From an uncultured bacterium (GTDB lineage Bacteria; Omnitrophota; Omnitrophia; Omnitrophales; Abzuiibacteriaceae), in contig CAYLXA010000002.1 in the NCBI GenBank assembly GCA_964387845.1, forward strand, positions 211,584 to 275,583: a DNA stretch of 64,000 nt, written 5' to 3'. The position numbers were made by a program, and so were the translations under genes. Numbering within the stretch: the stretch's first letter is position 1; each line of letters begins with the position of its first letter. The notes beneath the pieces were generated by a model. The model had not been told where the DNA came from. It ran no database searches and saw only the letters and a list, made by a program, of their open reading frames with translations. Shown here one piece after another: positions 14,914 through 28,819 of this stretch.

Positions 14914-15681
14914 CTACCAGTGCAACGCATCGCGGACAGGCCGTGCGAAGCGTCTTGAAAGCGGAATCCGTGTCTGTTTTGAATCGTTCAGGTCAATCGA
15001 GAAATTGCCGCTGGATTGCGGTGAAATCCGGGCAATAAAATCAATGTTCACGACATGCGCCTTGTGAACCTGGAAAAATTTCTTGGGGTCCAATTTCGTC
15101 AGCAATTCTTTCAAGGTCGACTTCACCAAATACATTTGCTGATCCGTTTGATGCGCATAAATATCCGCCAGGTCCGCATGAAAATAAGTGACTTTGCTGA
15201 CATCAAAGAAAATACGCTCTTTACTCTCCGGTTTATAACCGCAAATCCGGTCCAGATGATTGCCTTTGCTTGCGGCCCGGTTTAAAACCTGAAATTGATC
15301 CTTCAAGACTTCCGTTTGGCCCAGCAATGTTTTGGCCCGGTCCATGGCACGTAAAATCCGGTCCTTTTCGTAGGGCTTGAGCACATAATCAACTGCGCTG
15401 AGCTCAAATGCCTTGACGGCATATTCGTCGTAGGCGGTTGCAAAAATCACGACCGGCGGCTTTTCCATTTTTCCGACTTCCGTCGCCACATCAAGCCCGG
15501 TCATCTTCGGCATCCGGATATCCAGGAAAACAATCTGGGGGGACAACTCGCGAATCTTGTCGAGCGCTTCCTTTCCGTCTGACGCCTCACCCACAACGCG
15601 AACATCGTGGCAAGCGCCCAATAAACGCTTCAACCCTTCGCGGGCCAGCGGTTCGTCATCAACGATTAATGTGGTCGGCAT
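14914..15681 (-). CDS. LytR/AlgR-family response regulator (REC + LytTR)
   Basis: A receiver domain (LIVDDEPLAREGL...FLDIRMPKMTGL) is followed by a C-terminal LytTR DNA-binding domain. Confidence 0.85.
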   Translation of the reverse strand: MPTTLIVDDEPLAREGLKRLLGACHDVRVVGEASDGKEALDKIRELSPQIVFLDIRMPKMTGLDVATEVGKMEKPPVVIFATAYDEYAVKAFELSAVDYVLKPYEKDRILRAMDRAKTLLGQTEVLKDQFQVLNRAASKGNHLDRICGYKPESKERIFFDVSKVTYFHADLADIYAHQTDQQMYLVKSTLKELLTKLDPKKFFQVHKAHVVNIDFIARISPQSSGNFSIDLNDSKQTRIPLSRRFARPVRDALHW

Positions 15682-15686
15682 AATGA

Positions 15687-16982
15687 TTACTCCTCTTCCT
15701 CTGATGTTAAAGGTATTTTGAATTGTACTGCAGTTCCCTGTCCGATTGCACTAGAAATTTTTAACTCCGAATCACGCCCAAAATGATACCGCAGCCTCTC
15801 ATTAATGTTCTGAAGGCCGACTCCGGCACCTTCGCCTTCGTGGCTGACTTGCCCTTTCCGGACTTCCTCAAGCCTCTTTTCGTCCATTCCCACGCCGTGA
15901 TCTTTCACTAATATTTCGACATATTTTCCGTTTTCCCAAGCGGAAATAGAAAGAAGCGCGCCCTCTGATATGGGCGCAATCCCATGCTTAATCGCATTTT
16001 CCACAATAGGCTGAATAATCAAAACCGGCAGCTTGGCATTGGCGCCGCGCGGGCCCAGCTTGATGCTTTTCTCAATTTTCAGCCGGTTTTGATACCGGGC
16101 TTGTTCGATTGCTAAATACGCGTCGATATGATTAAGCTCTTCCTCAACCGATACCCAATCGCCTTCCTGTTTCACAATCCGGCGGAAAAAGTTTGAGAGT
16201 TTGATCACAAGTTCACGGGCATGCTCCGCTTTCTCGCGGCTGCAAATCGCTGCAATGGTGTTTAAAGCGTTAAACAAAAAATGCGGGTTGATTTGCGCCT
16301 GCAAAAATTTAAGCTTCATCTGCGGAAGCAGCCGTTCCAAATTTTTCCGGCGCTCATCCTGCACTAAGCCGATGGCCACCGCCATAAAAATATACGCGCT
16401 CATGGCTTCTAATACGACCAGTGAAAACAAAATACCGAGAAGCGCAGCCGCGTGAGTCGCTTGCCAGAGCGGCCAATATAAAATAATGCCCTGCAAAATC
16501 CCGGCAAACCCTGCAGCAAAAAGCGCGCTCCATCTTTTCGGTGTTTCGTTTCGCCGTAGATCGGACAACGCGCCCCCCAAAAGCCCTGCGCTTATTAAAA
16601 TCAGAACATGATGTAAATGAAATTCGCCGAGCATTGCTCGAAATAGAATGCCGACGGCAGCACAAATAACGCCTCCGCGAAAACCTGCTAACAAACCGCA
16701 GGCAACGGTAAACACGAGATAAAGGTCCAGAAAATACCAATCGGACTCGCCGTAGCGCAAATACCCCATTCCAGAGCCGACGATTCCCAAAATTGAAAAA
16801 GCGATGATTAGAAAATAATTATTTCGTGCATTTTGGGATTCGGTGGAATCTGTAGAAAAAAGCGAGCGAAACCATGGAAATCGAACCAGCAAGTAAGAGG
16901 AAAGCACCACGAAAGCGAATTTCTGAAAAATATCGCCGTAAATTTCAAGCCAGGCAATCCGGATCTGTTCTGCGTAAGGCAT
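15687..16982 (-). CDS. LytS/YehU-like sensor histidine kinase
   Basis: A polytopic N-terminus is followed by the His_kinase internal region (LQAQINPHFLFNALNTI) and an HATPase_c domain. Confidence 0.8.
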   Translation of the reverse strand: MPYAEQIRIAWLEIYGDIFQKFAFVVLSSYLLVRFPWFRSLFSTDSTESQNARNNYFLIIAFSILGIVGSGMGYLRYGESDWYFLDLYLVFTVACGLLAGFRGGVICAAVGILFRAMLGEFHLHHVLILISAGLLGGALSDLRRNETPKRWSALFAAGFAGILQGIILYWPLWQATHAAALLGILFSLVVLEAMSAYIFMAVAIGLVQDERRKNLERLLPQMKLKFLQAQINPHFLFNALNTIAAICSREKAEHARELVIKLSNFFRRIVKQEGDWVSVEEELNHIDAYLAIEQARYQNRLKIEKSIKLGPRGANAKLPVLIIQPIVENAIKHGIAPISEGALLSISAWENGKYVEILVKDHGVGMDEKRLEEVRKGQVSHEGEGAGVGLQNINERLRYHFGRDSELKISSAIGQGTAVQFKIPLTSEEEE

Positions 16983-21245: not shown

Positions 21246-23018
21246 TTATTCTAAAGACTTTGTTTCGATTTTGTTTTTCAGAAACTCAACGCACTTAGAC
21301 ACGTCCATCGTACCCAAATCTTTTCTGCCGCGTTCCCGGACGGCCACCTGGCCGGACTCGAGTTCGCGGTCGCCCACCACCAAAATATATGGGACTTTTT
21401 CGACTTCTGCCTGGCGAACTTTATAACTGATTTTCTCCGGCCGCGCGTCCAAATCCGTCCGGATTCCCGATTGCAATAAGACATCAACCACTTTTCGAGC
21501 ACCCGCCTCTTGCTTTTCAGAAATACACGCCACGCGCACTTGAACGGGCGCAAGCCAAACTGGGAATGCAGCGCCAAAATGTTCGACCAAAATACCCATA
21601 AAGCGCTCAACCGAACCGAACACTGCACGATGAACCATCACCGGCCGGTGGAGAGCGCCGTCTTCGCCTGTGTACTCCAAACCAAAGCGTTCCGGCATCT
21701 GGAAATCAAGCTGGATCGTTCCGCACTGCCAAATTCTACCAATGGAATCGGTAACTTCAAAATCTATTTTCGGGCCGTAAAAAGCGCCGCCGCCCGCATG
21801 GACATCAAAGCTGATGTCGTTCTTTTTCAGCGCTTCTTCCAAACCTTTGGTCGCCTTTTCCCATTGATCATCCGTTCCCATGGAATCTTTGGGACGTGTC
21901 GATAAATTGATCGCGATTTTTGAAAATCCGAAGGTTTTATACATGCGCAAAATCAGGGCGATGACTTTTGAAATTTCTTCCTTGATCTGATCGCCGTAGC
22001 AGAAAATATGCGTATCATCAATCGTAAACGCCTTGACGCGGAACAGGCCGTGCAAAACACCGGACAATTCATGCCGGTGCACAAGGCCGAGCTCGGACAG
22101 CCGAAGCGGCAGATCGCGGTATGAGCGCTGGCGCGAACGATAAACAATCGTGGAGCCCGGACAATTCATGGGCTTTAACGCAAAATCCTGGCTCTCGACT
22201 TTTGTGAAATACATGTTTTCTTTGTAATGAGCATAATGGCCGCTTTGCTTCCAAAGCTCGTCTTTCAAAATCATCGGCGTCCGGATTTCCTGATAATGCT
22301 CTTTTTCGTGCTCTTCGCGCCAAAATCGAATCAGCTCGTTATAAACAATAATTCCCTTCGGATGATAAAACGGGATTCCCGGCGATTCTTCATGAAACGT
22401 GAATAAGTCCAGCTCTTTGCCAAGCCGCCTGTGGTCGCGCTTCTTCGCTTCTTCGAGCTGTTTTAAATAATCATCGAGTTCTTTATCGGATGTAAACGCA
22501 ACACCGTAAACACGCTGCAGCATCGGATTGTGTTCATTGCCGCGCCAATAGGCACCCGCCACATTGGTCAACTTAAAACCTTTGATCTCTTTCGTGTTCG
22601 TCACGTGCGGCCCACGGCAAAGATCCATGAATTTCCCGTTTGAAAAAATCGAGACTTTATCGTCCGGAATTCCTTCCACAATTTCGCACTTAAACTTTTC
22701 GCCGCGCTTTTTAAAAAGCTCGATGGCTTCTTTCTTAGATAAGAAGCTCTGTTTAAATTCCTGCTGCTCCCCGATAATCCGAAGACATTCCTTTTCAATT
22801 GCAGCCAAATCGTCATCCGTGAGCGGTTTTTCGACCTGAAAGTCATAATAAAAACCGGTTGCGGTTGCCGGGCCTGTTCCAAGCTTCACATTCGGATACA
22901 AAGCCTGCATGGCTTGCGCCAACACGTGCGCTGCGCTGTGCCGGATCCGATGGAGCCGTTCAGACATATTTTCCGATGAAGAGCCCTTTGGGGCAGAATT
23001 TGCTTGCGATTGCGGCAT
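21246..23018 (-). CDS. thrS: threonine--tRNA ligase (lacking the N-terminal TGS domain)
   Basis: An editing-domain motif (HSAAHVLAQA) sits near the N-terminus, followed by class II catalytic and anticodon-binding domains, over 590 aa. Confidence 0.9.
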   Translation of the reverse strand: MPQSQANSAPKGSSSENMSERLHRIRHSAAHVLAQAMQALYPNVKLGTGPATATGFYYDFQVEKPLTDDDLAAIEKECLRIIGEQQEFKQSFLSKKEAIELFKKRGEKFKCEIVEGIPDDKVSIFSNGKFMDLCRGPHVTNTKEIKGFKLTNVAGAYWRGNEHNPMLQRVYGVAFTSDKELDDYLKQLEEAKKRDHRRLGKELDLFTFHEESPGIPFYHPKGIIVYNELIRFWREEHEKEHYQEIRTPMILKDELWKQSGHYAHYKENMYFTKVESQDFALKPMNCPGSTIVYRSRQRSYRDLPLRLSELGLVHRHELSGVLHGLFRVKAFTIDDTHIFCYGDQIKEEISKVIALILRMYKTFGFSKIAINLSTRPKDSMGTDDQWEKATKGLEEALKKNDISFDVHAGGGAFYGPKIDFEVTDSIGRIWQCGTIQLDFQMPERFGLEYTGEDGALHRPVMVHRAVFGSVERFMGILVEHFGAAFPVWLAPVQVRVACISEKQEAGARKVVDVLLQSGIRTDLDARPEKISYKVRQAEVEKVPYILVVGDRELESGQVAVRERGRKDLGTMDVSKCVEFLKNKIETKSLE

Positions 23019-23114: not shown

Positions 23115-26100
23115 TTACGCCGCCTGTCGAATCGCCTGACGGCCCTGTTCTTCAATATAGAGCGCTTCGATTCTATCAAACATGATCGTAACGACACCCG
23201 TGTAATGGTCAAATTCGAACCCGAGGCTTTTTAAGGGAAAAAGAAGCCGCGCCTGCTCTTCGGGGCTCTTATTTTTAAGGATTTTCGCCAGGGTGCCCGC
23301 CGCGCGAAGAATCGGAATGGTAAGCTCTTGAATGGCTGCTTTACTTCGAACGCTTTCCCAATTGGCAAACGCGACAAAAACATTTGTCAAAGCCGCGAGC
23401 TGACTTTCGGTTTCTGCCATCGCAGCACCATCTGTTGTTTGCGCCAAAGGAACGAACGGCATATCGGAAATCCGCAGATTGCGTGAAAGTGCACCAGCCG
23501 CCTGCGCACGCTCCACCGCATCCGTAATAGCTTTTACAAATTCATTTCGAATTTTCTGGACATGCATTCTCGCTTCTGTATCCGGAGCCGAAAATGCGAT
23601 TCGCAATTCAGAGCGGGACAATTGATCGAGACTCATTAAGAGAGCTTTAGCCAACGCGCCCTTGCCGTCAACCGTCACGGTCGGGATTCCGATTTTTACA
23701 TCCGGCGTAATAAGAGCCTCGATTGCAGCTTCAATGCGGCTTGCAATGATAGCACCTGCGTCGGTCACTTGAACTGCTGCAGGAAGAATGGATGTGCTTG
23801 TGGTTAGGCTATTTAAAGTCGGTTCTACAACTAAACTGAAAAATCGAGAATTTTGTACCGCTAGAATATCAAATACATTATCAGAAACCGTTGTGGCCAC
23901 TATTTTTGAAGCGGCCTCACGCAATTCTGAGCGATTCTCTTCCGCTTTTGCTGCAAGCTCCAGCGCTTCTTCGCTGAATTCCACAGTGTCTTCTTGCGGC
24001 TGTCCGTTCACTTTCACTTGCGCCGGAGACTTTCGCGGCGCAAACTGCTGAATCGGTTTTCGATCAGGATTGATATCCACAACCGGCGGAACCGGCTGAA
24101 CCGCCGCCCGAAGTTCGGATTTCTTAGTTTTTGTCGAATCTGATACGGGCGGAGCAGATTCAGCGGGCGTCGAGTCAGTTTCGCTGCTAATTCCTGCGGT
24201 TTTCTCAGCCTCTGCCCTTACCTTAGCGACCTTCACCCATTCAATGAAATCGAGCATGGGCCTTTCAGGATTTCGTATTTTAAGATCACCTTTTAGCAAT
24301 CCATTAATAATTTTTACCGCCAATCGCTTCATTTGGTCATCAAATTCAGTGCTTTTAATAATAAAGCTCTGATTGCTTTCTGTCATGTTAAGCGCCATTA
24401 GCGCAATGCCCAATAAATCGCGCGTTGCATTCAACGGAAATTGAATGGTTTTCGATAGTTTTGGAAGGCGGTCGTTCAGTTTAACCATGACACCGCTTCT
24501 ATTAAAAATGATGTCGAATTGTCTATCAGTCAGGTTCATGTCCTTTTTCAATTGCTCCGGATTTTCTTTCGTTGAAAAAGCCAGCGCCCAATCAAGGACA
24601 ACTGGTCCGTTATCCGTTTCAATGATATTAGGCAGGCCCAGATCATTGTGAACGACACCGGCCTGATGTGCATAATCGATGATTTGAGCGACTTGGAGCA
24701 ATAAATCTGAAGAGCGAATGGGTTTGGTTCCCGGTTTTTCAAACCGAAGCCAAAGCTGAGGGCGGTTATTTTCCGAGCTCCCAACCACGCCGCTGCGGGC
24801 ACTAAATGGAAACCCTTCTTGCCATCCATTCGGATTAAGAAGTTTGATGAACTCATTTTCTCTGACGAGCAAGCGATGGTGAATTTTTATTTCATTTTCA
24901 AGACGCCTGTTGAAATCGTCCTTTTCATCCTCAGCCACACCATTGTTATAATCCTCCATTCCCGGCAGAACTTCCTTGACTATATTGAGCTCCCCGGTGC
25001 GCTCATTAATTACAAGGGTAATGTGAGATACCTCATGGGGACGTGGCGGACGGCTTCTTTTGATGACTTCAGCGTAATATAACTGCTTGCGAGGCTTGAA
25101 AGAAAAACTCCAGACCATTCGGCTTCTTACCTTAATATCATTTGCATTTCTTACTTTAATAATTTTATTCTCTTCGATATACCGAAGCGGCGTATCGCCG
25201 TCATGATCTTCCCAGATACGTCCGCGTATTGTTTTGCGCGATAATTCAAACACGCGCGCCCGCACGCGCTCTTCAGACTCGGAAACGATAAGCACGCGCC
25301 CGCTCAAAATCAAAGCGTTCACGATGTATGGCGTATGAACCGGAGAATCAGCGTCTATAATCATTCGCTGGCGTTCGTTTCGATCTTTTATAATTTGTTT
25401 GTCGTTCAGCACAACAATGCGATCCTTTTTTGGAATTCCTAACTTGTCGGCTAATTTTGTCATCCAGAAATGTTTCTTTAGCTGATCTTTTGTTAAACCG
25501 AGTTCATTGTCTTTATGCCGAAGCTCGGAGCGGCTGGGTTCGTCGCTATCCCTCCCTGTGCCGGACGGAAGCATATTTGGCCAGAAACGTGGCGTAATGT
25601 GCCAAGCAACCAAAAGCCCGAATCCTGCCGAAAGCGACACTGTCGCAAGAATTGAATAAACCATTTCCGGAATTTGTTGGGCAAGAAGCGGAACATTGAA
25701 GCGCAGTTCGGATTTCTGAGGCGTTAAATTACCGGAGATCACCTCAGCTTGCTTTTCCTCAATGATCGCCGTTGCTCGGCTGGAGGCTTCGATTTGCCGG
25801 TTTTGATCATCAATTAAAGCACTGGCTTCACGCGCCTTTTCCGCCAACTCGCTTGCCGAAGTGCTCTTGGGTAGAAATGATGAGATTTGTTTGAGACGGC
25901 GAAGTTCGACACGTTGAGCAGCCACCCGTTTGGGATTTTGTAGGATGTGTCTACGCTTAGAAGGATCAGAAGCAATCGGAAACTCAAACCGCGGAAGGTC
26001 ATCGACATAAGCAATTAACTTCTCTTTGCCATCAATTATGGCAGTGCGTATTTCTGATCGCTGTGTCAATGTAGCGACATCCGTGACTTGAGAGAAAATA

Positions 26101-27863
26101 GCGTCCAATTTTCTAATTTCACTGCGTGTAAAAGCACGGTGTTGAAGCGCTAAATTATTGGGGTAAAGTGCCTGTGCGACTTTTAATCTCTCGTCCTTCG
26201 ATACCAAGCTTAGAAGCTCCCGGATTTGAGATTGGTCAAACATGGTTTTGCGCGTTCCGAGCATGGATTCTAGATAGATTTTCTCAACACCTTCGACGGA
26301 CGAAAGCCGCGGGCTGATTTCGATATACGAAAAGTTTTCCTTTGCGAAACGTTCCTCCAGGCCCTCCGAGTGAAATCCGCCGCTCACCAGAATCGCAGAC
26401 TGACGGCCGAGTTTTTTTAAAACTGACTTTGCATTTTCAACAAAATGTCTCTCGCGCGAAACCGCGCCTTGATAAAAATCAATTGCGGATTCGAAAATAT
26501 CATCAAGTTCGGCGGAAACTTTTATCGAATCAGGACTCACATCCCGTCTCTCGGCCAGTGTTTTTATTAAAAAACTGGGGCTGAGCGAATCTTTTTGGTA
26601 CATCGCCACCGCCACTTCATTGCGGACGAGCTCGAGCTTGAGCAGCTTTTCGAGCAGGATTGATTTCTGAATCAAATCCACCAGCGATTTTTCCTGATCC
26701 GATTCGATCAGCACTTTAAAAACAGCGGCAACGGCCTTTTCAATTTCATCAAAAAACTGAATGCCGTCAATTTCGCTTTGGAATATCAAGGTCGCCAAAA
26801 CTTTCGACAGTTCGGGAAAATATTCAAACTCAAAACCGTGCGGCGATAATGCTTGATACAAATCCTCCAGAAAAACTCTCGGCAATCTTGCGCCAAGCCC
26901 CTTCACGCCGCTTTCTAACTTCCAATCGTCAAGGCCTGCTTTTAACTCCGCCGGCACATCCAGCGCGTGGACGAGTGATCGCAAGCTGTCCAACTCGCCT
27001 TGCGCTTCGTCTAACTTAATTTTAGACTCCAAATTTTGCGCTTTGAAAAATCGGACCAGCATCGGGTATTCAATTTGAGATTTTGCGTGTGCTATATCCA
27101 TCTCGAGCCTGCTCAATGCAAACCGCTTAATGACGTTCAAAAAGCCGATCAAATCCAGCCGTTCATCGCGCCAGGCCAGCCATGAGCGTAAAAAATCTTT
27201 TAAATCTTTATTGAAATAACGCGATCCTAGGACTTCAATCTGTCCGTGGAGATTTTTTAAATAACGATCAACATTGGTGCGATGCGACGCGACTTTTTGG
27301 AAAGTTTTGAGGTTTTTCGCAAACGCTTCTAAGTTTTCAACGCCTTCCGCATGAATGCTCGGATCGTCCAAATGATCCAGCAAAAATAATTCGGCGCCCG
27401 AAAGGTCCCCGTTCTGCGCCATGTAATCGGCGATTTTTTTGTTGAGATCTTCATCATCGAAGAAACGGAATTGCTCCGGGTCAAGCTCGGATGAAGCTGC
27501 TTCTAAAAGAATTGTTTTGATTCCGTAGGCTCCGGAAATGTGCTCGATAATTTCCTTGGTATGCCGCTGCGCTTCATAGCTTCCGTGCGCATCGCGGATA
27601 TGAATGATCGCGGGCGCTTCGTTACCTGCAGCTATTACCGGCCGGACCGACTCAACGCGGCCGAGCGATTCCGGGATACTGAGATCTAAAATTCTAAAAT
27701 ACGAGGTTTGTGCAGGTTCTGCAAAGTTGGCGATTTGAATGGTGGCCGGTGTTGCAAGCGCGGGGTCAATTGAAGAAGTGGCAAGAACCGTCAGAATAAG
27801 AAAACTTGAAAGCAATCTTACTGTAAACTTATATCTATTATTTCTCAATATTTTATCTGACAT
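23115..27863 (-). CDS. giant membrane protein of unknown function (1582 aa) with TraB/GumN/Tiki-like motifs and a kinase-like segment
   Basis: It is one uninterrupted ORF. It has an N-terminal signal/anchor and an internal TM helix near residue 745. Paired motifs IIHIRDAHGS and ILVSGGFHSEG lie in the N-terminal half. The motif VVHNDLGLPNIIETDNGPVVLDWALAF lies in the cytoplasmic half. Confidence 0.6.
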   Translation of the reverse strand: MSDKILRNNRYKFTVRLLSSFLILTVLATSSIDPALATPATIQIANFAEPAQTSYFRILDLSIPESLGRVESVRPVIAAGNEAPAIIHIRDAHGSYEAQRHTKEIIEHISGAYGIKTILLEAASSELDPEQFRFFDDEDLNKKIADYMAQNGDLSGAELFLLDHLDDPSIHAEGVENLEAFAKNLKTFQKVASHRTNVDRYLKNLHGQIEVLGSRYFNKDLKDFLRSWLAWRDERLDLIGFLNVIKRFALSRLEMDIAHAKSQIEYPMLVRFFKAQNLESKIKLDEAQGELDSLRSLVHALDVPAELKAGLDDWKLESGVKGLGARLPRVFLEDLYQALSPHGFEFEYFPELSKVLATLIFQSEIDGIQFFDEIEKAVAAVFKVLIESDQEKSLVDLIQKSILLEKLLKLELVRNEVAVAMYQKDSLSPSFLIKTLAERRDVSPDSIKVSAELDDIFESAIDFYQGAVSRERHFVENAKSVLKKLGRQSAILVSGGFHSEGLEERFAKENFSYIEISPRLSSVEGVEKIYLESMLGTRKTMFDQSQIRELLSLVSKDERLKVAQALYPNNLALQHRAFTRSEIRKLDAIFSQVTDVATLTQRSEIRTAIIDGKEKLIAYVDDLPRFEFPIASDPSKRRHILQNPKRVAAQRVELRRLKQISSFLPKSTSASELAEKAREASALIDDQNRQIEASSRATAIIEEKQAEVISGNLTPQKSELRFNVPLLAQQIPEMVYSILATVSLSAGFGLLVAWHITPRFWPNMLPSGTGRDSDEPSRSELRHKDNELGLTKDQLKKHFWMTKLADKLGIPKKDRIVVLNDKQIIKDRNERQRMIIDADSPVHTPYIVNALILSGRVLIVSESEERVRARVFELSRKTIRGRIWEDHDGDTPLRYIEENKIIKVRNANDIKVRSRMVWSFSFKPRKQLYYAEVIKRSRPPRPHEVSHITLVINERTGELNIVKEVLPGMEDYNNGVAEDEKDDFNRRLENEIKIHHRLLVRENEFIKLLNPNGWQEGFPFSARSGVVGSSENNRPQLWLRFEKPGTKPIRSSDLLLQVAQIIDYAHQAGVVHNDLGLPNIIETDNGPVVLDWALAFSTKENPEQLKKDMNLTDRQFDIIFNRSGVMVKLNDRLPKLSKTIQFPLNATRDLLGIALMALNMTESNQSFIIKSTEFDDQMKRLAVKIINGLLKGDLKIRNPERPMLDFIEWVKVAKVRAEAEKTAGISSETDSTPAESAPPVSDSTKTKKSELRAAVQPVPPVVDINPDRKPIQQFAPRKSPAQVKVNGQPQEDTVEFSEEALELAAKAEENRSELREAASKIVATTVSDNVFDILAVQNSRFFSLVVEPTLNSLTTSTSILPAAVQVTDAGAIIASRIEAAIEALITPDVKIGIPTVTVDGKGALAKALLMSLDQLSRSELRIAFSAPDTEARMHVQKIRNEFVKAITDAVERAQAAGALSRNLRISDMPFVPLAQTTDGAAMAETESQLAALTNVFVAFANWESVRSKAAIQELTIPILRAAGTLAKILKNKSPEEQARLLFPLKSLGFEFDHYTGVVTIMFDRIEALYIEEQGRQAIRQAA

Positions 27864-28241
27864 AAAATATAGTTTTTTAACGTCTTAAATAACTAAAACA
27901 AAGAATCCTCCCTTCTCTGAAAAATTTTTGGGATTGAACTGATAATAAATTATGCCAGATTAGTGAAAGCAATACAAGGGTGTATTGATTTGCTAACCTG
28001 TTGTTTTATATGGACTTACAGAAATTTCTTCTGTGGAGGTACTTTTAAACTGCAAAATAAGTCAAAATTTACTTAGATTTTGAACTTTTTTTGCTGTTTG
28101 CTTTTGCCTTTAAACGCTTAATTCTAGCGCGCCGGCGGGCTCTTTTTTTTCGTTTTTTTGCATCGCGTGTCATGTTTTCTTCCTTCCTTAATTAATAAAT
28201 ACTGCGATGCGGTGCGCGGCATCCTTGCCCGCGACAGCATC

Positions 28242-28280
28242 GTATTTTTGCATCGGCAAAAATGCGCGCTAGAGGACTCG
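28242..28280. repeat. direct repeat copy 1 (duplicate of tRNA-Val 3' end plus downstream hairpin)
   Basis: The 39 nt gtatttttgcatcggcaaaaatgcgcgctagaggactcg are identical to 28425-28463. Confidence 0.8.
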
Positions 28281-28424
28281 GCGCCTTCCGCTCGCAACCC
28301 TCGCTCCAGGTCGGCCACCCGCTCCTCAAATCTGACGCTCAGCTTACTTCGCGTCATGAGGAGCTCCCTTCGAGTCCTCATCTTGCAGTGCCGTAGAGAG
28401 CTTTCCTTAAACTCTCACGGCACA

Positions 28425-28463
28425 GTATTTTTGCATCGGCAAAAATGCGCGCTAGAGGACTCG
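28425..28463. repeat. direct repeat copy 2 (covers the 3' 18 nt of tRNA-Val and 21 nt downstream)
   Basis: It is a perfect 39-nt match to 28242-28280 and includes the palindrome tttttgc-cgat-gcaaaaa. Confidence 0.8.
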
Positions 28464-28519
28464 AACCTCTGACCCCCACCATGTCAAGGTGATGCTCTAA
28501 CCAACTGAGCTAAGCGCGC
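28446..28519 (-). tRNA. tRNA-Val (anticodon GAC)
   Basis: The reverse complement reads GCGCGCTTAGCTCAGTTGGTTAGAGCATCACCTTGACATGGTGGGGGTCAGAGGTTCGAGTCCTCTAGCGCGCA. CCA is not encoded. Confidence 0.8.
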
Positions 28520-28819
28520 ATAACTCCTTATATACGTGTTAACTTCTTTAATTTAATATACTTACAGAATAATTTATTTATTTTCATGTGACTCCTAGAA
28601 CTCCTGAAATACCCCAAAATATCTCAATCCTTATCAGAGTTTTATCAGAGTGACTATAGCCAAAAATAATTCACCGCTGACTCTCACCTTATAAAGAACG
28701 TGCTCCACCTTAGCACTTCGTGATTTGGAAGCAAGTCGAGAAGGGATTTTATTAGAAAGGAGTCAGATTAGCAAGTTCTAATTGCGGGATTTTAAGCTGT
28801 CGGATTGCTCGTTTGCAAG

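Follow-up and report, generated by a model that had tools for sequence, protein, structure and literature searches.

The question raised by this locus is whether one long gene, which appears to join a hydrolase-like domain to a kinase-like domain across the membrane, encodes one working protein or several. The gene lies at 23115..27863 on the minus strand of a 64,000-nucleotide stretch from an uncultured Omnitrophota bacterium (contig CAYLXA010000002.1, positions 211,584 to 275,583; the whole stretch is called the window and its numbering is used here), and its open reading frame (ORF) of 1,582 codons runs from ATG to stop. In an earlier note it had been described as an uninterrupted gene between thrS and tRNA-Val for a membrane protein of 1582 amino acids (aa) with an N-terminal signal or anchor, a Tiki/TraB-like outer module and a kinase-like inner segment. 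These statements were borne out, and the four peptides that it had quoted (IIHIRDAHGS, ILVSGGFHSEGLEERFAKENFSYIEI, VYSILATVSLSAGFGLLVAW and VVHNDLGLPNIIETDNGPVVLDWALAF) are all present. What found no support was the coupling of the Tiki-like ectodomain to the kinase: both folds were recovered, but a kinase accompanies the head in only 7 of 158 relatives. The 'Tiki-sensor kinase' model for this gene, which is appealing but unsupported, is therefore replaced here by another, in which the central element is a set of [RK]SE[LI]R repeats that had no place in the earlier account. That the protein (the query) has a head-cargo-tail architecture and belongs to a family built in this way is regarded as nearly certain. 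The best explanation as a whole, a head-cargo-tail polyprotein that would be processed at these repeats, is given a probability of about one half.

A head-cargo-tail family in Omnitrophota

A first homology search gave 24 relatives of 1,074-2,622 aa that were alike mainly over the N-terminal ~530 residues and divergent downstream. When a profile of this head was run against 1.84 billion cluster representatives 9,875 proteins were found, 6,864 of them at E <= 1e-30, and in all of the best 150 hits the head started within approximately the first 100 residues of proteins with lengths from 554 to 7,670 aa. The family statistics that follow rest on 158 head-bearing proteins unless stated otherwise. 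Each family member examined contained exactly one head, and the six titled genomic loci (6/6, of ten loci) as well as all named proteins came from Candidatus Omnitrophota/Omnitrophica. The recognisable cargo behind the head was diverse (glycogen phosphorylase, APH, ROK, receiver domain, alanine dehydrogenase, HAD hydrolase) and most of the cargo was unrecognisable; in the short members of ~1,000 aa no partner domain was recognisable in Pfam. These comparisons place the query in a very large head-cargo-tail family that is, so far, specific to Omnitrophota.

Both ends of the chain are also characteristic. By inspection, almost every complete member has a signal-like N-terminus ahead of the head, and a strict hydropathy threshold flags 85/158. 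These N-termini are unusually conserved, with an S/T/N-rich core that often ends in ...TN..W(S/G/A)(A/M/L)P, and may reflect a dedicated targeting or recognition step. At the other end, the query and 12 relatives (13/158) have a tail module of 160-270 residues that reaches the C-terminus to within 1 residue, and 115/158 proteins terminate in -AA (66) or -SA (49) with an amphipathic helix before it. The -AA/-SA ending (aa 1574-1582 in the query, window 23118-23144) resembles an ssrA-type or C-terminal-protease recognition end.

In two loci of metagenome-assembled genomes (MAGs) from Omnitrophota, head-bearing genes were found in tandem on the same strand (L002, 5437-9195 and 9808-16159; L006, 226-5130 and 9883-11571), indicating that genomes carry multiple paralogs which are sometimes adjacent. 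In another locus (L013, 1-7876) a multi-enzyme ORF of >5,725 aa, including phosphoenolpyruvate carboxykinase, enoyl-CoA hydratase, AMP-binding and other domains, is located directly upstream of the head gene P0021; its N-terminus is outside the locus and it ends in ...ASALSLGTAA, that is, a class-B-like SLG (see the second motif class below) plus a terminal AA.

A short motif punctuates the chain

The motif [RK]SE[LI]R occurs seven times in the query (aa 580, 602, 717, 778, 1248, 1311 and 1417) where 0.017 copies were expected (Poisson P = 7e-17), and the maximum in 20,000 shuffles was 2. Over the family RSE[LIVMA]R was observed 353 times with 3.2 expected, and RSELR, RSEVR, RAEVR, RSEAR and other variants occupied the top ranks among 5-mers outside the head. 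The parts of the query and the motif copies in them are as follows (TM, transmembrane; pLDDT, predicted local distance difference test score):

27746..27863 (-), aa 1-39: Sec-type signal peptide or signal anchor, from hydropathy peak and sequence
26154..27745 (-), aa 40-570: head domain with an alpha/beta core of the TIKI/TraB/EreA/ChaN superfamily
25715..26126 (-), aa 580-716: two RSEIR (580, 602) and a 110-aa module (607-716) common only to P0002, predicted to be extracytoplasmic
25515..25714 (-), aa 717-783: TM mini-module of 56 aa bracketed by motifs; KSELR (717), TM helix (734-753), RSELR (778)
24123..25517 (-), aa 783-1247: cargo module; small N-terminal alpha/beta subdomain (~783-872, low confidence) and putative atypical protein kinase of the eukaryotic type (~960-1240)
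23919..24122 (-), aa 1248-1315: KSELR (1248), Pro/Lys-rich disordered linker (pLDDT <50 over aa 1226-1296), RSELR (1311)
23118..23918 (-), aa 1316-1582: alpha/beta tail module ending ...GRQAIRQAA, pLDDT 73-91 from aa ~1368

The hydropathy profile of the query contains two strongly hydrophobic segments. The first (aa 14-32) is the S/T-rich core of the signal-like N-terminus, where it follows an n-region of net charge +4 and precedes ALA|TP, and the second is the TM helix VYSILATVSLSAGFGLLVAW (aa 734-753, Kyte-Doolittle peak 1.86). The topology predicted from hydropathy and charge is compatible with the order ectodomain, single TM helix, cytoplasmic kinase. Candidate assignments within the tail at aa 1425-1556, to TetR_C_43 (20 bits, where the cut-off is 27) and to bile-acid-receptor ligand-binding domains (E >= 0.07), were below threshold, had no backing from Pfam scans of the homologs and were rejected.

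Serine codons of the motif copies are both AGT and TCN, and this difference in codons between copies indicates selection on the peptide. An origin of the motif at the DNA or RNA level was rejected given that the codons vary between copies and that the sole Rfam match in the gene region was to tRNA. The flanks showed mild preferences (S/A/P before the motif; S/A/T and then acidic residues after it), the median spacing between motifs was 233 aa, and none of ten Pfam envelopes contained a motif copy (0/10), while several were closely flanked by motifs; in P0031 a ROK domain, a motif and a receiver domain follow in this order with gaps of 11 and 10 aa. The homology blocks that the query has in common with other proteins start and stop at motifs, and copies 1248 and 1311 sit where pLDDT is <50. 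The copy RSELR at 1417 is query-specific, falls within a beta-strand of the tail and is probably incidental.

The large gene has a positional ortholog, P0003, and the two proteins are 33% identical as compared to 69-91% for the neighbouring genes of the two genomes. By part, the identity was 46% in the head, 32% in the tail and 25% in the kinase module, which is the least conserved. Motif copies 602, 717, 778, 1248 and 1311 are nevertheless positionally kept in both P0002 and P0003, with flanks that are only 15-30% identical. Rapid divergence with the punctuation retained indicates purifying selection on the motifs themselves, and evolution faster than that of the neighbours would fit an exported or interaction-facing role.

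A second motif class, [GAS][AQSGT]SLG, was found in another lineage. At least two first-class motifs and no second-class motif were present in 81 proteins, the reverse was seen in 23 and both classes in 1, and the class of a protein matched that of its nearest head neighbour in 106/108 cases. Motif and head also go together at the level of genes, as in the window and ten Omnitrophota loci 40/40 motif copies, 33 of them in the control set, were located in head-bearing genes and 0 in ~33,800 aa of other ORFs. One motif-bearing ORF in L004 that seemed to be head-less was dismissed as an exception, being a head-bearing gene continued across a scaffold gap. In nine family members a motif is followed by only 3-9 small residues at the C-terminus (e.g. 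...HRSELRVKQAA).

The head as a divergent, apparently active TIKI-superfamily hydrolase

The two motifs on which the Tiki/TraB-like assignment had been based are located in the head at aa 86-95 (IIHIRDAHGS) and aa 490-515 (ILVSGGFHSEGLEERFAKENFSYIEI). The head has the central parallel beta-sheet flanked by helices that forms the common TIKI core, with strands at aa 85-91, 117-120, 171-174, 489-495 and 512-518, and this core is split by an all-helical insertion of ~260 aa (aa ~180-445). Its structural relatives, with the listed figures, are Bcr135/136 (EreA-like; 2rad, 2qgm; 10.3 and 9.5), HopBA1 (9.4), EreC (9.2), a TraB-family protein (9.0), ChaN (8.6) and RRSP (8.1); in a Foldseek search of the head against PDB, Bcr135 was ranked first with a non-significant value (E = 0.37).

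Profile hidden Markov model searches, which had been suggested as a check on both halves of the protein, recognised nothing in the outer region and gave only sub-threshold matches in the inner region of the query. Pfam and NCBIfam scans of the whole query left the outer region unrecognised, and TraB_PrgY_gumN, Cofac_haem_bdg and Erythro_esteras had no match in the query at E <= 10 or in P0002-P0005 at E <= 0.01. A PDB profile search with an alignment of 21 head sequences returned nothing related; a match to MKI67-interacting protein (E = 0.0055) was discarded as a low-complexity helical match.

The active site of the superfamily consists of two His, two Glu and an essential Arg, as described in the RRSP structure paper (PMC6254334). 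Residues H93, E121, E176, R470 and H498 were invariant in 158/158 heads, as were Q99, G495, G496, P518 and Y530. The H-to-E spacing is 28 in both the head and RRSP, and the R-to-H spacing is 28 in the head versus 29 in RRSP. We infer that E176 is the counterpart of the second superfamily Glu. The invariant set of two His, two Glu and Arg together with the RRSP-like spacing suggests that the head is a divergent TIKI-superfamily hydrolase, predicted to be active. It differs from TIKI, TraB, PrgY, GumN, ChaN, EreA-D, RRSP and HopBA1 in having its own helical insertion of ~260 residues that splits the core, and from RRSP in that the first acidic residue of the E-x-H motif is variable (D/N/T/S at position 91), with E176 and Q99 being invariant. 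Unlike in the rest of the superfamily, the head was always N-terminal and fused to long variable polypeptides in the proteins examined.

Proposed processing at the motifs

We propose that a single precursor would be cut at the R/K-S-E-L/I-R motifs into separate products. The head hydrolase is predicted to be exported, the other products would be small periplasmic pieces, a tail module and a membrane segment, and this segment may remain joined to the cytoplasmic kinase as its anchor. Processing at the motifs, considered by itself, is judged somewhat more probable than the opposite from the patterns around them. Canonical twin-arginine (Tat) signal peptides were found 3-25 aa after the motif at 8/530 sites, compared with 16/10,600 controls, which gives an odds ratio of 10 (P = 9e-6). 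After the motif, hydrophobic segments were present at 9.4% of sites versus 4.3% in controls; before it they were rare (6/530). The residues just before the motif were enriched in Ala/Ser, like the natural -AA/-SA C-termini. With its motifs the query also shows a feature of autoprocessing polyproteins, namely short conserved sites that lie in flexible linkers where one module borders on the next. An internal Tat signal in a folded chain of several thousand residues would be useless unless the chain is cut, and from this knowledge of the pathway the Tat signals downstream of the motifs suggest that the chain is cut.

The motifs could also be uncut linker elements, for docking, for a pause in translation or folding or for modification of the serine, in an intact multidomain membrane protein anchored by its TM helix, which is conceivable but less probable. 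Docking or pausing would leave unexplained that Tat and other signal peptides are found directly after motifs and not before them, and it is implausible that the Tat pathway would export a folded chain of several thousand residues by way of an internal signal. Neither the preference for small residues before the motif, mirroring natural C-termini, nor the strict co-occurrence of the motif with a hydrolase head would be accounted for. Other observations agree better with an intact chain and hence weigh against a polyprotein. Cleavage is so far inferred wholly from sequence patterns. Copies 717 and 778 bracket the TM helix, and cuts at both would free it from the kinase and detach the kinase from the membrane, which seems wasteful. 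The density of motifs is equal on the two predicted sides of the membrane (2.2 outside versus 2.0 inside per 1,000 aa, from a crude family-wide prediction), and a motif 3-9 residues from the C-terminus, as in the nine members mentioned, would be pointless for module separation. In a 2026 preprint (10.64898/2026.06.07.730766), long Omnitrophota proteins are read as membrane-anchored cytoplasmic arrays. The polyprotein reading has further difficulties of its own: the distant members P0019-P0024 and the giant ORF of L013 have few or no motifs; no head column separates the two motif classes (75% purity), so that the correlation between class and head may be due to shared ancestry only; and a kinase without a glycine-rich loop, as described below, could be a pseudokinase.

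If the chain is cut at the motifs, the head would be the first choice as processing enzyme: sequence-specific endopeptidases (Tiki, RRSP) belong to its superfamily, each family member has a single N-terminal copy of it with an invariant active site, and wherever the motif occurs a head is found as well, the motif type tracking head relatedness. The peptide DSTKTKKSELRAAVQPV would be a candidate substrate of its cognate head, with …AASLGSE… as the class-B counterpart. A head with a signal peptide should, however, be located outside, and motifs 778, 1248 and 1311 are predicted to be cytoplasmic, which is a problem for the head as the sole protease; its role as processing protease is put forward only tentatively, as something less than an even chance. 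The best partial discriminators of motif class within the head, at query positions 149, 124, 468 and 133, are only suggestive. Position 468 precedes the invariant R470 by two residues; heads of the RSExR class have K/R there and those of the SLG class mostly E, so that it is a possible specificity determinant that is confounded by phylogeny.

The kinase as probable interchangeable cargo

The peptide VVHNDLGLPNIIETDNGPVVLDWALAF, from which a kinase-like segment had been proposed, belongs to a module for which a bilobal kinase fold was found. By alignment its catalytic residues are the beta3 Lys in NIVKEV, the alphaC Glu in RENEF, HND, the Asn in LPN and the Asp in LDW; they align with the canonical HRDLKPDN and YDF of P0005, and the catalytic residues are kept in the modules of P0002-P0005. 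In the query, RIO1, APH and Pkinase reached only 15-17 bits, below threshold, and Bud32 E = 1.4e-5, at aa ~1045-1118. For Pfam Pkinase the query scored 14.8 bits with a gathering cut-off of 31.7, whereas the homologous modules of P0002 (44.8) and P0005 (36.9) pass, and no GxGxxG-like sequence for a glycine-rich loop was found upstream of the beta3 Lys. The module may thus be an atypical kinase or a pseudokinase. It differs from PknB, YabT, Bud32 and RIO in scoring below every curated cut-off, in having HND for HRD and DWA for DFG, and in being a motif-delimited module with no direct joint to a sensor.

The predicted order of signal peptide, head, TM helix and kinase would suit a receptor-type Ser/Thr kinase. 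In such a protein an extracellular ligand would be sensed or processed by the Tiki-like ectodomain, and the signal would pass along the single TM helix to the kinase in the cytoplasm. The recovery of both folds, the catalytic residues kept in the modules of P0002-P0005 and the same overall layout in the positional ortholog P0003 are compatible with this idea. Against it, the pairing of head and kinase was found (jackhmmer) in just those 7/158 members, with unrelated cargo or none elsewhere. About 165 residues and three conserved motifs intervene between head and TM helix, another motif stands between TM helix and kinase, and in P0002 and P0004 the kinase is located ~700 and ~400 residues further downstream, respectively, with other modules in between. 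Given that the kinase is also the part that differs most between the positional orthologs (25% identity), a receptor kinase is considered unlikely, and the kinase would be one interchangeable cargo rather than the output of a sensor.

Relation to known systems

Long and giant proteins of Omnitrophota have been described as tilings of several enzymes with suspected cleavage (bioRxiv 10.1101/2023.11.21.568195; 10.64898/2026.06.07.730766; Seymour et al. 2023, PMC10066038). In these studies the cleavage points are stated as unknown, C39 or subtilisin-like domains are proposed as the proteases, and the proteins covered are of at least 10,000 aa (2026 preprint, 10.64898/2026.06.07.730766) or at least 30,000 aa (West-Roberts et al. 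2023, 10.1101/2023.11.21.568195). The query family is from the same phylum and likewise consists of unrelated enzymes (kinases, phosphorylase, ROK, receiver, HAD) tiled together with scattered TM helices, but the query, with 1,582 aa, is far below this range of 10,000-30,000 aa. Term searches of the three studies gave no mention of an N-terminal TIKI-like head, a punctuation motif or an -AA/-SA end, and a literature search on Omnitrophota with polyprotein, TraB, Tiki or erythromycin esterase gave nothing relevant. As far as the literature could be searched, neither the head family nor the motif code nor the -AA/-SA terminus appears to have been described.

In structure, the TIKI/EreA/TraB enzymes come nearest to the head, and by analogy the nearest mechanistic counterparts of the whole would be MARTX toxins and viral polyproteins. 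Like these, the query would be a precursor with a built-in hydrolase, unrelated modules and short conserved sites in flexible linkers, with a type of site that varies with lineage. Unlike in these, the candidate protease is TIKI-like, and not a caspase-like CPD (cysteine protease domain) or a chymotrypsin-like 3C protease, it is placed at the extreme N-terminus behind a signal peptide, and processing is predicted from sequence.

Another reading is a secreted multi-effector of a predatory or parasitic cell, analogous to MARTX toxins: the chain would leave the cell in one piece, be autoprocessed by the head in or on the target cell, and release the kinase and other enzymes to act there. The query has a signal peptide, 64/158 members have no TM-like segment after the head, RRSP (an effector of MARTX toxins) and HopBA1 (a type III effector) share the head fold, and the gene is diverging far faster than the genes around it; Omnitrophota have moreover been proposed to be predators or parasites with giant surface proteins. 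The strongly hydrophobic helix at 734-753 should on the other hand stop transfer, and internal Tat and Sec signals are easier to understand if they act in the cell that makes the protein. Housekeeping genes surround the gene, with no secretion system beside it within the window, and the MARTX hallmarks, RTX repeats and the cysteine protease domain Peptidase_C80, had no Pfam match in the query. A secreted effector of this kind therefore seems improbable.

Extended to the phylum, the polyprotein reading would mean that thousands of chains headed by a TIKI-like protease are cut, by the head or a partner enzyme, at lineage-specific pentapeptides (RSE[LV]R or [GA]xSLG) and that the products are sorted to cytoplasm, membrane or periplasm, each with an Ala/Ser C-terminus. 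Such a general strategy is speculative and rather unlikely at present. If true, it would rank among the few instances in which bacteria use polyprotein expression as a general cellular strategy, it would add a new activity to the TIKI superfamily and it would provide the missing code by which the long and giant proteins of the phylum are cleaved. No genomic trait of Omnitrophota is more puzzling than their long and giant multi-enzyme ORFs, and the missing cleavage points block structure prediction and functional dissection. A head without a Pfam or NCBIfam model (at least 9,875 sequence clusters), a five-residue code in two versions and an -AA/-SA terminus make this question testable.

Gene and genomic setting

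The choice of start codon is backed by the N-terminus MSDK..(R/K)YK(F/Y), which is kept in P0002 and P0003, the two nearest relatives. A chimera, in which adjacent genes have been fused by a sequencing, assembly or gene-calling error, could be suspected given that the sequence is MAG-derived and that one related locus has a scaffold gap. The frame of 4,749 nt contains no internal stop, and GC (guanine-cytosine) content and skew showed no break across the gene. Moreover, the full-length layout recurs at 33% identity in the positional ortholog, which is present on three independent contigs, and the N-terminal head and C-terminal -AA/-SA end recur in thousands of relatives, which makes an artefact exceedingly improbable.

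The upstream neighbour of the gene is tRNA-Val(GAC) at 28445-28520, and downstream on the minus strand follow thrS (21246-23018), rplT, pheS and pheT. In the gap of ~580 bp (27864-28444) between tRNA-Val and the start of the large gene there is an 85-aa ORF (28124-28381, minus strand) without Pfam match, which may be a gene or fall in a promoter/leader region; promoter and terminator scans gave background level only. Around P0003 the order is NTP-transferase (nucleotidyltransferase), the large gene, thrS, infC, rpmI, rplT, pheS, pheT and then a LytS/LytTR pair. This pair, a LytTR response regulator and LytS after pheT in L011, has a counterpart in the window, where a LytS-type sensor histidine kinase (14914-16982, minus strand) is 82% identical to that of L011 (18967-20827) and a 255-aa ORF occupies the position matching the LytTR regulator. 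The synteny of the pair with the large gene is kept, and it probably has no relation to that gene. In the genome of the positional ortholog, CagX/TrbI-like genes (type IV secretion or conjugation) are located ~6 kb upstream of the large gene (L011, 267-2186).

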